Shown: positions 18,243 to 37,317 of the stretch, piece by piece
Layout of the letters: each line of letters opens with the position of its first letter
Numbering within the stretch: position 1 is the first letter of the stretch
Source of the DNA: an uncultured Flavobacteriaceae bacterium
GTDB lineage: Bacteria; Bacteroidota; Bacteroidia; Flavobacteriales; Flavobacteriaceae
DNA length: 64,000 bases
Direction: 5' to 3'
Assembly: GCA_905479625.1 (NCBI GenBank)
Contig: CAJQNF010000061.1
Location: forward strand, 807 to 64,806
Program-made: the position numbers and the translations under genes
The notes under the pieces: model-generated
Told to the model about the DNA's origin: nothing
The model's input: the letters and a program-made list of their open reading frames with translations, nothing else
Databases searched by the model: none

Positions 18243-20714
18243 ATGAAAATATTCTCAACGCTGCTCGTAATTCTATTCCTTCCTTTTATAGTGCAGTCTC
18301 AAGAGAAACAGAGGCCTCAAGGAGCTACTCAACCCCAAAGAGAAATGTTCGAATTGAAAGGTGTAATTCATGAAAAAGAAGCTAACATACCTCTAGAGTT
18401 TGCCACAGTCATTGCAAGACCCCTTAAAGGAGATCAGGTTTATGGCGGAATGACGACCGGAAAAGGTAAGTTTTCCTTTGAAGTTCCTAAGGGCAAGTAT
18501 ACTATCAGTTTCGAATTTCTATCTTTTAAAACCATTGCGATAGAAAATGTTGATGTCAATGCCAATTTGGATCTGGGAGAGGTCTTTATGGAAGAGGATG
18601 CTGAAGCGCTTGACGAAGTTACGGTGATCGCAGAAAGGAGTACTATGGAGGTGAAACTGGACAAAAAGATCTATAATGTAGGAAAAGACATGACGGTTAA
18701 AGGAGGAACGGCAAGTGATGTGTTGGACAACGTACCATCCGTAACGGTAGATGCTGAAGGAGTGGTAAGTCTAAGAGGAAATGAAAACGTCAGGATACTG
18801 ATCAACGGGAAACCCAGCGGACTTGTTGGCTTGAATGACACCGAGGCATTAAGGCAATTCCCTGCCGATGCCATTGCCAAAGTAGAAGTGATCACAAGTC
18901 CTTCTGCCCGTTATGATGCTGAAGGGACAGCCGGTATACTGAATATCATTTTAAGAAGAGATAAAATTACAGGATTCAACGGAGTTGGTACGGTCAACCT
19001 AGGTATCCCTAAATACTATGGATTTTCCACCAGCCTGAACTACAGGCTCGAAAATGTCAATTTTTTTACCAATATTGGCTATTCAGATCGGGAGTCTCCG
19101 GGAAATTCGAGTGCGGAAACTACTTATTTTTCTCCGGATGCAAATTATGCATCGACCAATCAACAAATTGACTATACCAGAAAAGGCGATAATTTAAATC
19201 TGAATTTTGGTATTGAGTATTATATCGCTAAAGAAACTTCGATTACGGCTAGTTTTTTATATAGGAATTCAGACAGGGACCGTATCTCTGAAAATATGAC
19301 AGATGCTTTTGATGAATTTGATGATTTGGTCAACTCCACCCTCAGAATCGAAAATGAAGTGTCTAAAGACAATGTACTTCAATACGATTTCAACTTTTTG
19401 CATAAATTCAAAAAAGAAGGGCATCAAATAGATCTTGACCTTCAATATCAGGACAATAGTGATGATGAAAACAGTTTGATCACAAATGAGGAGACCTTTC
19501 CAGGCATGATTGACCAACTCTCTGAAAAAGTCGACTCTGATGAATTGCAGAAAAGATTTTTGATTCAAAGTGATTATGTATTGCCGATAGGTGAAAACCA
19601 GCAAGTTGAATTAGGATTCAGAGTCAACAAGGATGACAGAGAAACTGATTACAAATTTTTCAATGAAAATGAGAATGGTGATTTTATAGTTAATGACAGC
19701 CTGACGAATCTTTTTGAATATGATGAAGTAATATCCGCGTTTTACGGACAATACGGGAATAAATTCGGAAAATTCTCTGCGCTTTTAGGCCTTAGGATAG
19801 AGGCCACTGATATAGACATTCAGTCAACAGGTAAGGAAATTGATTCGTTAAATCAAAAAAATTACGTCAATGCCTTCCCGACAGCAAATCTTGTCTATGA
19901 ATTTACAGAAAGTGAAAATTTAACATTGGGATATAATAGTCGAATCAGAAGACCCAGATCAAGGTTTATCAATCCTTTTCCTTCTCAGTCAAGCCGGACA
20001 AATATATTTCAGGGAAATCCTGATCTGGATCCTTCCATTTCTCATGGAGTAGACCTTGGCTATTACAAAAGATGGCAAAAAGTAACTTTTAACACTTCGG
20101 TTTACTATACTCATGCTACGGATGTTTTTCAGTTTATTAGTGAGGACACTGGAGAAACCACTGACGATGGAATTCCAATTATAAGAAGGACACCTATAAA
20201 TTTAAGCACCGATGACCGCTATGGGTTCGAATTCTCAGCAAATTATACCCCTAAAAAGAATTGGAGGTTCAATGCCAGTTTTAACTTCTATAATTCAACT
20301 TTAGATGGAGAATATGAGGGAGTTGATTTTGGATCAAGTTTTACCAGCTGGTTTGCAAGAGGGACTTCTAAATTAACCTTGCCTGCTAAAATTGACTGGC
20401 AAACTACCATGATGTTTAGGGGTCCGCGACAAAATGCCCAATCTAAAAGTGAGGGCATGTTTATGGCCAATATGGCTTTTAGTAAAGATATTTTAAAAGG
20501 AAATGGGACCTTGGTCTTCAATGTGGATGATCTTTTTAACACGAGAAAAAGAATATCTGAAACTACTACAGATACTTTTACAGAAAATAGTGAATTCCAA
20601 TGGAGGCAAAGACAGTTCAGGCTTTCTTTTACCTATAGATTCAATCAGAAAAAACAACGCCAGCGTCAACGCGGGGGTATGGGCGGAGATGATGGTGAAG
20701 AGTTTGGTGGTTAG
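18243..20714 (+). CDS. TonB-dependent receptor-like outer-membrane beta-barrel protein, paralog of 15436-17868
   Basis: VLDNVPSV, PSARYDAEGTAGILNIIL, GNPDLDP, LSFTYRF motifs. Confidence 0.88.
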   Translation: MKIFSTLLVILFLPFIVQSQEKQRPQGATQPQREMFELKGVIHEKEANIPLEFATVIARPLKGDQVYGGMTTGKGKFSFEVPKGKYTISFEFLSFKTIAIENVDVNANLDLGEVFMEEDAEALDEVTVIAERSTMEVKLDKKIYNVGKDMTVKGGTASDVLDNVPSVTVDAEGVVSLRGNENVRILINGKPSGLVGLNDTEALRQFPADAIAKVEVITSPSARYDAEGTAGILNIILRRDKITGFNGVGTVNLGIPKYYGFSTSLNYRLENVNFFTNIGYSDRESPGNSSAETTYFSPDANYASTNQQIDYTRKGDNLNLNFGIEYYIAKETSITASFLYRNSDRDRISENMTDAFDEFDDLVNSTLRIENEVSKDNVLQYDFNFLHKFKKEGHQIDLDLQYQDNSDDENSLITNEETFPGMIDQLSEKVDSDELQKRFLIQSDYVLPIGENQQVELGFRVNKDDRETDYKFFNENENGDFIVNDSLTNLFEYDEVISAFYGQYGNKFGKFSALLGLRIEATDIDIQSTGKEIDSLNQKNYVNAFPTANLVYEFTESENLTLGYNSRIRRPRSRFINPFPSQSSRTNIFQGNPDLDPSISHGVDLGYYKRWQKVTFNTSVYYTHATDVFQFISEDTGETTDDGIPIIRRTPINLSTDDRYGFEFSANYTPKKNWRFNASFNFYNSTLDGEYEGVDFGSSFTSWFARGTSKLTLPAKIDWQTTMMFRGPRQNAQSKSEGMFMANMAFSKDILKGNGTLVFNVDDLFNTRKRISETTTDTFTENSEFQWRQRQFRLSFTYRFNQKKQRQRQRGGMGGDDGEEFGG

Positions 20715-34948: not shown

Positions 34949-35818
34949 ATGTCGGAAAATTCTGTAATAGTACCAAGAACTAAAAAACCGGACTGGCTAC
35001 GTGTAAAACTTCCTGTCGGAAAAAAGTATACAGATCTAAGGAGTTTGGTGGATAAATATAAATTGAACACTATTTGCACCAGCGGAAGTTGCCCTAATAT
35101 GGGTGAATGTTGGGGTGAAGGTACTGCTACGTTTATGATACTTGGTAATATTTGTACACGTTCATGCGGATTTTGCGGGGTTAAAACCGGGAAACCTGAA
35201 ACTGTAGAATGGGATGAGCCGGAAAAAGTAGCGCGTTCGATATATTTAATGGAAATTAAACATGCGGTGATCACCTCAGTAGACAGGGATGATCTGAAAG
35301 ACGGTGGGTCAATAATTTGGGCAGAAACCGTTGAAGCCATTAGAAGAACTAATCCGAATACGACATTAGAGACATTGATACCGGATTTCAGAGGAATGAA
35401 AAACAATATTGATCGAATTATTGACGTAGCACCAGAAGTAATATCTCATAATCTTGAAACAGTAAGACGTTTGACAAGAGAAGTCAGGATACAGGCTCAA
35501 TATGACCGAAGCCTTGAAGTCCTTGCCTACCTAAAAGATTCAGGCCAGCAAAGAACAAAATCAGGAATTATGCTTGGTCTTGGAGAAAAAGAAGAAGAAG
35601 TTATTGAAACGCTTCATGACCTGCATAAGGCAAAGGTCGATATCGTTACCATAGGTCAATATTTACAGCCAAGTAAACAGCACCTTCCTGTACATGAGTT
35701 TATCAATCCTACTCAATTCGATAAGTACAAAGAAATTGGGCTCGAACTTGGATTTAAATACGTTGAAAGTGGGGCATTGGTTCGCTCCTCATACAGGGCT
35801 GAAAAGCATTTAATATAG
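34949..35818 (+). CDS. lipA: Lipoyl synthase
   Basis: CX4CX5C and radical-SAM CX3CX2C motifs; RSSY. Confidence 0.97.
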
Positions 35819-35831
35819 AAAATCGTTCAAA

Positions 35832-35878
35832 TTAACATATGATTAACAGGAATTCGATCAATTTGGTATAGATTTTGA
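35832..35878 (+). promoter_or_regulatory. Sigma54-type -24/-12 promoter with upstream TTAACA-N5-TTAACA box (unit 1)
   Basis: TGGTAT-AGATT-TTGA (GG 35865-66, N10, GA 35877-78); TTAACA at 35832 and 35843. Confidence 0.55.
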
Positions 35879-35889
35879 TGTTAAGGTTA

Positions 35890-35975
35890 TGAATCAAGAT
35901 TTCCCATTAATTTTGACTTCGAATGATTAATTTTGAGTTAGTAAGCTAAAAGCACCTCTTTAAAGGGGTGCTTTT
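35890..35975 (+). ncRNA. Putative small RNA, paralog 1 of 3
   Basis: 5' hairpin 35891-35920, invariant 27-nt core 35923-35949, terminator AAAAGCACCTCTT/AAGGGGTGCTTTT 35948-35975. Confidence 0.72.
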
Positions 35976-36096
35976 AAGTTATAATAGATTCAACAATTCC
36001 ATAATTTCTAATAATTCTTTTTTCCAGTTATGAATTATTAAAAAATGCTATTGTAAATATTAGTCTGAGTGCCATTTTTAATAAAAAACCCATTTC

Positions 36097-36142
36097 TTAA
36101 TAAAATTTTAACATTTTCAATCGATTTTGGCACAAGATTTGT
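36097..36142 (+). promoter_or_regulatory. Sigma54-type -24/-12 promoter with upstream TTAATA-N5-TTAACA box (unit 2)
   Basis: TGGCAC-AAGAT-TTGT (GG 36129-30, N10, GT 36141-42); half sites at 36097 and 36108. Confidence 0.65.
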
Positions 36143-36152
36143 TAATTATACA

Positions 36153-36242
36153 GTGAAGCAAAATTCCCCACTAATTTTGTTTTCATTATGATTAATTTTG
36201 AGTTAGTAAGCTAAAAGCACCTTTATACTGAGGTGCTTTTTT
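36153..36242 (+). ncRNA. Putative small RNA, paralog 2 of 3
   Basis: 5' hairpin 36154-36185, core 36188-36214, terminator AAAAGCACCT/AGGTGCTTTTTT 36213-36242. Confidence 0.75.
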
Positions 36243-36369
36243 CATTTCTATATCTTATTAAATTATTTAATCAAATTTACTTATTATCTATCAACGAATC
36301 TCATTAATGAAGATATCCGTAATAAAAATGACCGTAACTATATGTTTTATTAATTTAATTACTTAATTA

Positions 36370-36401
36370 TTTGTGAATACAACAATAATTTCTTAATTTC
36401 G
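36370..36401 (+). promoter_or_regulatory. Bacteroidota sigma70-type promoter (unit 3)
   Basis: TTTG (36370-73), N20, TAATTTCG (36394-36401), close to TTTG-N19-21-TAnnTTTG. Confidence 0.5.
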
Positions 36402-36404
36402 GTG

Positions 36405-36492
36405 TAACAAAAATTCTCACAAGATTTTGTTAACATTAATGATTAATTTTGAGTTAGTAAGCTAAAGCACTTCTGTATCCAGAGGTGCTTTA
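36405..36492 (+). ncRNA. Putative small RNA, paralog 3 of 3
   Basis: 5' hairpin TAACAAAA/TTTTGTTA 36405-36432, core 36439-36465, terminator TAAAGCACTTCTG/CAGAGGTGCTTTA 36463-36492. Confidence 0.7.
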
Positions 36493-36504
36493 TTCTTTTA
36501 AGAC

Positions 36505-37317
36505 TTATAATCTCCCAATAAACTCTTCAACAAGCTTACTGATCATATTTTCAGAAGACTTGGCCGCAATTTGAACAGCTTCATGAGAAACTTCTTCAAT
36601 TTTTCCTTCAATACCAAGATCAGTGATCACTGACAATCCAAAACACTCCATACCCATATGTTTGGCTACGATTACCTCAGGAACTGTGCTCATTCCAACT
36701 GCGTCTGCTCCCATTAGTTTAACCATACGGTATTCAGCCGGGGTCTCAAAAGTAGGTCCTTGTAAAGCGAGATACACGCCTTCTTTTATATCCAATTTAT
36801 TCTCAATAGCAATAGACCTCATCAATCTGACCATTTTTAGGCTATAGGGTTCGTGCATATCTACAAATCGAGGTCCAAATCTTTCTTCATTTTCACCCCT
36901 TAGAGGATGTTCAGGCATCATGTTGATATGGTCTGTAATGATCATCACGTCACCTACCTTGAATTCTGGGTTAACTCCTCCACAGGCATTAGATACCATT
37001 AATTTTTCTATACCCAGCAACTTCATAACACGAATCGGAAAGGTAACTTCCGACATTTCCCATCCCTCATAATAATGAAACCTGCCTTGCATGACAACCA
37101 CTTTTTTACCCGCCAGCTCTCCATATATTAAAGTACCTGAATGTCCAGAAACAGTACTTACCGGAAAATTAGGAATATCATGATATGGGATTTTCTTCTC
37201 TATTTTAATCATTTTCACTATTCCCCCAAGACCGGTTCCCAACACGATTCCAATTTCAGGTTTTTCTAATCCTATATCCATTAAAAACCTGGCAGTTTCC
37301 TTAATTTTTTCGTACAT
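36505..37317 (-). CDS. Purine-nucleoside phosphorylase (trimeric type)
   Basis: LGTGLG, GRFHYYEG, GPTFETPAE, AVGMSTVPE motifs. Confidence 0.95.
   Translation of the reverse strand: MYEKIKETARFLMDIGLEKPEIGIVLGTGLGGIVKMIKIEKKIPYHDIPNFPVSTVSGHSGTLIYGELAGKKVVVMQGRFHYYEGWEMSEVTFPIRVMKLLGIEKLMVSNACGGVNPEFKVGDVMIITDHINMMPEHPLRGENEERFGPRFVDMHEPYSLKMVRLMRSIAIENKLDIKEGVYLALQGPTFETPAEYRMVKLMGADAVGMSTVPEVIVAKHMGMECFGLSVITDLGIEGKIEEVSHEAVQIAAKSSENMISKLVEEFIGRL

Follow-up and report, generated by a model that had tools for sequence, protein, structure and literature searches.

Predicted small RNAs complementary to susC start regions in Lutimonas, a variant of the Bacteroidota anti-start-codon RNAs

Described start-codon-pairing RNAs and the Lutimonas units

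In Bacteroides thetaiotaomicron, the small RNA (sRNA) FopS represses SusC translation by pairing with the start codon (PMC11697453), and GibS uses a 30-50 nt AU-rich seed lying across the start codon that binds with high affinity in vitro in a protein-free setting (PMC7366714). Within the Flavobacteriaceae, F. psychrophilum encodes Rfp18, an RNA of ~97 nt whose deletion lowers two target mRNAs, both of metalloproteases (PMC9723704). We analyzed a 64,000-nucleotide stretch of DNA (hereafter, the window) from an uncultured member of the same bacterial family, in which three ~90-nt units lie between lipA and a purine-nucleoside phosphorylase gene, each in the order 5' hairpin, invariant core and intrinsic terminator. 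On our best reading of the comparisons that follow, which extend to related units from the genus Lutimonas, the units would act like FopS and GibS and share the layout of Rfp18, yet would belong to neither family.

The likeness to FopS lies in the pairing at susC mRNA start codons, predicted here in silico. By eye, the FopS-10 and GibS 5' oligos may have the anti-AUG motif in common with the units; the core downstream of that motif differs. In FopS, a single-stranded 5' stretch directly precedes the terminator, whereas 108 of 110 aligned units have a 5' hairpin with the anti-AUG stretch within its 3' arm. The invariant core of Lutimonas lies 3' of this stretch and, unlike in FopS, the hairpin itself is antisense to target codons. 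FopS is reported with sigmaA-type (sigmaABfr) promoters and 12-15 dispersed copies in Bacteroidaceae; in contrast, 85 of the 110 units have a sigma54-type promoter, the copy-3 class alone being sigmaA-like, and occur in 1-6 copies. Furthermore, FopS is bound and antagonised by the RRM protein RbpB, whereas no RbpB-like protein was found in Lutimonas: PF00076 (RRM) matched 0 of 39 genomes, 18 of them at least 90% complete, with a positive B. thetaiotaomicron control. GibS resembles the units in the long AU-rich, start-codon-spanning pairing predicted for them, and differs in its length of 145 nt, unstructured 5' end, PM2 promoter and metabolic-enzyme targets.

The likeness to Rfp18 is one of part order, compared by eye: a 5' hairpin, UUUUCAU, nine bases, a U-run with a G/U-rich core and a terminator follow one another in both, and the register predicted for Rfp18, about -24 to +7 if position 201 of the published table is the start codon, matches that of the units. 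Rfp18 differs in hairpin and core sequence, is described as one copy with a transcription start site assigned to sigmaA, and has secreted metalloproteases and an adhesin as predicted targets, compared with SusC genes as the top targets of the units. Rfp36, a sigma54-driven RNA of F. psychrophilum, bears no clear resemblance by eye, and two further RNAs of that species, Rfp11 and Rfp40, have the G/U-rich seed before the terminator (PMC9723704), indicating that it transcribes several seed-sharing RNAs. A sequence-only model of the unit family (R1) gave no match at E<=1 to an Rfp18-like locus (L242) recognised by eye.

Outside the Bacteroidota, MicA, RybB and MicL of enterobacteria depend on sigmaE, an ECF sigma factor, and use short Hfq-dependent seeds. 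The analogy with the units is functional, a stress sigma factor driving sRNAs that would cut outer-membrane protein synthesis, and no sequence relation is expected. Vibrio Qrr1-5 and Pseudomonas CrcZ/CrcY are paralogous and sigma54-driven; the Qrr RNAs need Hfq and target regulators, and CrcZ is a protein sponge. An earlier note on this DNA had drawn the analogy with Qrr, which extends to the sigma54 promoters only; neither Qrr nor CrcZ/CrcY matched the units in Rfam searches.

Architecture, promoters and distribution of the units

The three copies of an identical 27-mer in an ORF-free gap reported by the earlier note were recovered as described: exact matches lie at 35923, 36188 and 36439 (spacing 265 and 251), and no ORF of at least 60 aa is present between the flanking genes. 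The 27-mer has no match at up to 3 mismatches elsewhere in the window (0 of 100 shuffles matched), and the whole assembly (2.67 Mb, 84% complete) contains only these three full unit copies. The upstream flank, lipA, is a lipoyl synthase ORF (34949..35818, + strand; TIGR00510 above cut-off) that stands outside the RNA system and is common to most tandem arrays in relatives. The convergent downstream ORF (36505..37317, - strand) is the pnp of the earlier note and encodes purine-nucleoside phosphorylase (PRK08202/TIGR01700 above cut-off), not PNPase.

All three predicted sRNAs lie on the + strand. Copy 1 (~89 nt, 35890..35978) comprises a hairpin (35890-35921), the core (35923-35949) and a terminator (35952-35976). 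Copy 2 (~90 nt, 36154..36243), the canonical and commonest form of the unit, has a hairpin with a C-rich loop (36166-36172) and an anti-AUG stretch (36175-36186), the core (36188-36214) and a terminator (36213-36240). In copy 3 (~91 nt, 36405..36495), a hairpin precedes the core (36439-36465) and a terminator (36463-36492) that may also stop pnp transcription from the opposite strand. The hairpin and terminator previously drawn for each unit are recovered on folding, at z = -3.6 to -3.9 relative to 200 shuffles. A search for sequencing runs gave 15, all of them assembled contigs. Among the 8 RNA runs analyzed, one set shows a depth of 1-4, with contigs spanning units and flanks like DNA, and in two runs unit 2 is covered by contigs that are short and deep (bin depth of 203 and 109 vs ~4-17 in flanking genes), one beginning at 36155 and one at 35890, with sequences from related strains; assembled contigs cannot separate transcription from DNA or repeat collapse, and the collapse of paralogs mimics deep contigs, which are therefore given no weight here. 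We predict with high confidence that the three units are sRNA genes.

Conservation was assessed on an alignment derived from 145 distinct core matches, of which 110 units passed filters on flank length, hairpin signature and terminator; the 35 left out comprise chance matches, truncated or masked copies and hairpin-less forms. These units are related to each other, and counts over them are therefore not independent. A terminator hairpin folds in 110/110, with varied stems, when sequences are folded one by one (RNAalifold on the MAFFT alignment missed it as a result of misalignment), and the 5' hairpin folds in 108/110. The inner 7-bp helix of hairpin 1 is paired in 98.2% of cells over the 110 units, and slid controls for this hairpin pair at 39-62% compared with 88%. 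The claim that the stem differs while pairing is kept stands as regards pairing; the variation mostly affects one side of the stem (A-U to G-U), and double changes are seen at only 2 pairs. Changes in the 5' arm are nearly all A to G, and the 3' arm, the predicted target-pairing strand, is nearly invariant. The hairpin-1 loop is variable, with at least 25 loop types among the 110 units. The core had been taken as single-stranded; it is involved in a weak 7-bp helix in the minimum free energy structure, with a mean unpaired probability per position of 0.28-0.83 over the 110 units.

The DNA between units, earlier described as not similar, does contain shared elements, since units 1 and 2 have in common a sigma54-type -24/-12 box and a TTAAY-A..TTAAC element. 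The sigma54-type promoters map to 35863..35878 for copy 1 (+ strand, predicted +1 at 35890) and 36127..36142 for copy 2 (+ strand, predicted +1 at 36154). The conserved upstream elements (35832..35847 and 36097..36112, both + strand) belong to a class that sits 12-32 nt upstream of the sigma54 box and is possibly an activator or DNA-bending site. Copies 1 and 2 have the layout of sigma54-dependent genes, -24 GG and -12 TG(C) at fixed spacing, and are predicted from this to depend on RpoN, which the genome encodes together with one clear enhancer-binding protein. Copy 3 is preceded by a housekeeping (sigmaA)-type promoter (36370..36401, + strand), with TTTG at 36370 and a -7-like box at 36394-36401 that has one mismatch to what we take to be the Bacteroidota housekeeping -7 consensus. 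Across the family, the sigma54-type box is found in 85 of the 110 units, 82 of these at 60-66 nt from the core, and its GG, A and TTG columns are 100% conserved in 84 promoters, which were selected on the same motif. A -7-like box with at most one mismatch to the same presumed consensus occurs in 19 of the 25 non-sigma54 units, a count made without a shuffle control.

Sigma54-like boxes are also present upstream of grpE, htpG and clpB in the host genome, in agreement with the F. psychrophilum sigma54 regulon, where such promoters drive chaperone, envelope-stress and gliding genes (PMC9723704). Genome-wide, sigma54-like boxes exceeded the antisense control by a modest margin (20 vs 7 at score >10; 8 vs 6 at >12) using a profile trained on these same unit promoters, and a sigma70 scan stayed at chance level (6 vs 6.0).

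The core is present in 22 of 24 same-genus genomes and in none of 16 from the order's other families, and a GTDB scan returned 98 stretches containing it. Among named species, Lutimonas halocynthiae, L. saemankumensis and L. vermicola carry the array in three copies, from which we infer that the host, too, belongs to Lutimonas. Model R1 matches 37 of 39 genomes of the genus at E<=0.02, with 1-6 strong copies per genome (7 in one bin with 9% contamination), and strong hits among 151 family genomes are confined to this genus and one other (G094). G094, G002 and G004 carry a single copy between lipA and pnp, and other lineages carry two or three tandem copies there, or extra copies at shared dispersed sites, a distribution that fits gene duplication and not a mobile repeat. 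In dispersed-copy lineages (L226-L229, L234), the units are grouped within ~8 kb, where they occupy shared intergenic sites beside genes that by eye are folA/sppA-like, gldC-like and clpX/dnaG-like. The earlier note had expected a regulatory RNA to have homologs of conserved structure in relatives and a MITE/REP element to be present in many dispersed copies. Structure-conserved units are found across Lutimonas, and their 1-6 copies at orthologous sites argue against such an element, for which high copy number, variable insertion and terminal inverted repeats are expected.

The Rfam check of novelty that the earlier note had proposed found no Rfam 15 family at gathering threshold in the window. 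The best sub-threshold hit, BTnc231 (22.9 bits vs a cut-off of 80.4), was driven by terminator and promoter DNA, and was rejected, along with GcvB and others, as far under cut-off. The family is described nowhere in the openly accessible literature searched, which contained no paper on an sRNA in Lutimonas. Taken together, the sRNA family of Lutimonas and one neighbouring genus is real and undescribed, and is a variant of the Bacteroidota anti-start-codon sRNAs.

Predicted susC targets and division of labour among copies

The reverse complement of a unit resembles a Bacteroidota start region, with an A-rich leader, an ATG and K-T-K-L codons, and the 55-60-nt RNA body as a whole, not just the core, is complementary to the region where ribosomes would load on two tandem SusC/RagA genes on G000:C101. 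For copy 2, the best non-self blastn hits lie on these two susC starts, in the antisense direction and with 81% identity along ~50 nt (E 1.5e-4); blastn also gave a third, identical start, located at a contig end. Both genes belong to TIGR04056 (SusC/RagA) and have SusD-like genes next downstream, and the nearest solved structures of their products are BT2264/Omp121. The duplexes of copy 2 on the C101 starts reach -44.2 and -42.3 kcal/mol, compared with a mean of -15.9 (sd 4.0) for 2188 predicted starts, which places them ~7 sd away from the remaining starts. After cofolding, copy 3 ranks the C101 genes 1st and 2nd, and copy 1 only 8th and 9th. For no copy were the C101 energies attained in any of the 400 shuffles made for each copy and target; four shuffled copy-2 queries peaked at -28.8 to -30.8 across all starts, so that the -30 of copy 1 on C101 is not exceptional by itself.

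The predicted duplex spans -32 to +27/+35 around the start, that is, the whole ribosome footprint including the AUG, with the core on the leader, the hairpin-1 3' arm on the AUG and codons 2-5, the loop on codons 6-7 and the 5' arm on codons 7-10. Pairing with translation starts, as proposed in the earlier note, is predicted, not by the core alone but by core and hairpin 1 across the AUG. Exact core complements in the genome yielded 0/6, 0/19 and 0/25 matches within 30 nt of a first-ATG start; pairing needs G-U wobble. The susC leader and start self-fold weakly (-7.7 and -8.7 kcal). A loop-loop kissing interaction is no more than a possibility, the target hairpin being weak (-1 to -6 kcal) and lost in several orthologs. 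The target site is nearly invariant in Lutimonas susC orthologs, each of the 110 units attains -30 or better on one or both of the C101 starts, and 7 of 28 examined family-wide model hits lie antisense on SusC starts of this type in other genera. Some of the secondary predicted targets are also barrels (alginate-export, OMP_b-brl_2, BBP2 and another TonB receptor), and signal-peptide-like proteins make up 65% of the top 20 targets vs 30% overall with a crude predictor. These results make it quite probable that the SusC starts are direct targets.

As a separate observation, the 60 nt upstream of the MKTK-type susC start (G000:C101:5363-5422, orthologs L160-L181) are nearly invariant across Lutimonas. 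This conservation exceeds the needs of sRNA pairing, and the upstream half is possibly an unrecognised promoter or regulator site.

The units had been regarded as redundant, a description at odds with copy positions that have fixed, different promoter types, anti-start words and predicted targets. Three main anti-start words are found among the units (65 TK, 18 SK and 15 NK). In 20 distinct three-copy arrays, the second unit is TK-class with sigma54 without exception, and the first combines the SK class with sigma54 in 18; the third lacks a sigma54 box in all 20 and belongs to the NK class in 16. The host's own copy 1 has an anti-start word of the 'MKSK' class, altered with respect to copy 2, and the only exact SK-type start among called genes is that of a 1004-aa SusC (G000:C51:20082) followed by SusD, GH16, GH30 and a sugar transporter, which together point to a beta-glucan locus. 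Copy 1 ranks this SusC 3rd of 2188 (-25.0), copy 2 ranks it 248th, and the copy 1 of a relative ranks the C51-type SusC 2nd (-30.0). On all 12 orthologous C51-type starts, SK-class units score better than TK-class units, although for 3 of the starts the margin is <1 kcal; on both MKTK starts the TK class is ahead. With this query, the C51-type SusC was found in 14 of 39 genomes. For the anti-start word of copy 3, the search found no outer-membrane target with an exact match and no target class.

Proposed role, rival explanations and related elements

The explanation that we favor, and consider likely, is that the units are stand-alone sRNAs complementary to SusC/RagA start regions that would repress translation. 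The analysis establishes the sequence and conservation of the units along with their promoter motifs, terminators and complementarity; that they are transcribed, pair in vivo, repress and answer to a trigger is expected from these features, as follows. The core would pair with the conserved A-rich susC leader, at about -31 to -12, and the duplex would then run over the AUG and codons 1-10, presumably opening the sRNA 5' hairpin. Copy 2, as the canonical form, would act on the two tandem MKTK-type susC genes, and copy 1, with its altered anti-start word, would also act on the MKSK-type SusC of the GH16/GH30 glycan locus. Copies 1 and 2 would be induced through sigma54, and the housekeeping-type promoter of copy 3 would provide basal control. 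Stress would thus raise the sRNAs and cut the synthesis of outer-membrane barrels; since sigma54 drives chaperone and envelope-stress genes in flavobacteria, less barrel synthesis under stress would be their likely role. Repression of SusC by these predicted RNAs is, in our estimation, probable, and an envelope-stress trigger has slightly less than an even chance, the main alternative being nutrient control. Only tentatively do we put forward the joint proposal that the RNAs supply the non-coding side of an envelope-stress response governed by sigma54 in Flavobacteriaceae, derive from the target 5' end copied in inverted orientation, pair in a ~55-nt chaperone-free duplex, divided their work by SusC class and sigma factor once duplicated in tandem, and represent one branch of the family-wide anti-start RNAs, among them Rfp18 and susD 3'-UTR seed-plus-terminator RNAs, that would read a leader code of exported-protein mRNAs in bacteria without Shine-Dalgarno pairing.

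Two other readings also have the units act on mRNAs as sRNAs. They might act broadly through the core on many exported-protein mRNAs, SusC being one of many, or respond to nutrients. Consistent with this, 20 of 30 family loci with the anti-AUG-plus-core complement are protein gene starts, mostly signal-peptide-like by eye, hairpin-less core-plus-terminator forms exist, and one target lies in a glycan locus; against it, copy 2 sets the C101 susC starts ~7 sd apart, and hairpin 1 is specific to their codons 1-10. This reading overlaps the favored one, from which it differs chiefly in breadth and trigger, and we regard it as unlikely. A little less likely still is that pairing with susC leaders stabilises or activates the mRNAs, or only tunes operon ratios, in place of repressing them. 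The sign of regulation is not guaranteed, given the reduced metalloprotease mRNAs of the Rfp18 deletion (PMC9723704), and the target leader and start fold only weakly on themselves (-7.7, -8.7 kcal); however, the duplex would cover the entire ribosome footprint with the AUG, and start-codon pairing by GibS and FopS represses.

The remaining explanations do not involve pairing with mRNAs. Sponging of an RNA-binding protein, in the manner of CrcZ or CsrB, through the C-rich loop or the U-rich core was an option in the earlier note and is in keeping with the multicopy arrangement, the invariant core and sigma54 promoters like those of CrcZ. Yet each RNA has a single motif without repeated sites, the 110 units display at least 25 loop types and 0 of 39 genomes encode an RRM protein, and sponging leaves the 81% antisense identity to susC starts and the class-specific anti-start words unexplained; we judge it very unlikely, and less likely than base-pairing. 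Hardly credible is a coding function, be it an 8-codon ATG..TAA peptide of the 27-mer, a minus-strand MKTK.. frame or a type I toxin-antitoxin. The 27-mer does read ATG to TAA in 3/3 window copies, and the minus strand is start-like, with an ATG in 94 of 110 units; but the plus-strand ATG is gone in 30 of 110 units, 22 of these to non-start codons, the core shows almost no synonymous change, the minus-strand frames come in 25 lengths between 5 and 55 codons and are missing altogether from 16 units, among them the host's own copy 1, and promoters and U-tracts indicate the plus strand. We give equally little credence to an origin as mobile or repetitive elements (MITE/REP) or as inverted, inert relics of a susC 5' end beside terminators: dispersed copies in some genomes and the antisense similarity to susC would suit it, whereas 1-6 strong copies per genome (7 in the 9%-contaminated bin) at orthologous positions across species, promoter, core and terminator conserved while spacers diverge, and preserved pairing in both hairpins argue against it.

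Elements related to the units extend beyond Lutimonas. A 15-base seed is present in 110 of 301 family genomes vs ~45 for a reversed control (counted by eye), and in 30 seed loci read it lies mostly before a terminator, including behind susD-like genes. The anti-AUG-plus-core pattern is found in 48 of 301 genomes vs 7 for the control; of 30 such loci, 20 are antisense to protein starts, 8 precede a strong terminator-like hairpin (3 of them the units described here) and 2 are unclear. By eye, three loci of other Flavobacteriaceae (L131, L132, L139) have the seed and a terminator 9-30 nt past the stop of genes encoding a SusD-like C-terminus, and might thus yield sRNAs from the 3' UTR that feed back on susC. 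In nine genera (L134, L135, L137, L138, L143, L150, L155, L156, L158), the same orthologous gene of ~240 aa has, 70-270 nt downstream, a conserved element that contains the seed once or twice together with a common terminator. Two other genera (L197 and L136) have a sigma54-type promoter ahead of a shorter RNA that consists of seed and terminator and lacks the 5' hairpin, and in five loci (L045, L065, L096, L109, L121) a hairpin-less core and terminator sit right behind a housekeeping-type -7 box, predicting ~50-nt RNAs. Finally, an intergenic, related U-rich seed near 19141 (+ strand) of G000:C13 is followed by a -21 kcal terminator-like hairpin, and is possibly another sRNA.

SusC/D importers decide the diet of marine Flavobacteriaceae, and, except in gut Bacteroides, the control of their translation has hardly been studied; the two most abundant components of the F. 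johnsoniae outer membrane include one SusCD complex (PMC12611786). The family described here offers an unusually sharp, testable sRNA-target pair and may connect sigma54 with outer-membrane load. Copy 1 with the MKSK SusC and copy 2 with the MKTK SusC constitute a natural compensatory experiment, and cultured Lutimonas species carry the same array. More broadly, these data suggest a single anti-start strategy common to FopS/GibS, Rfp18 and many seed-plus-terminator elements that are as yet unannotated.
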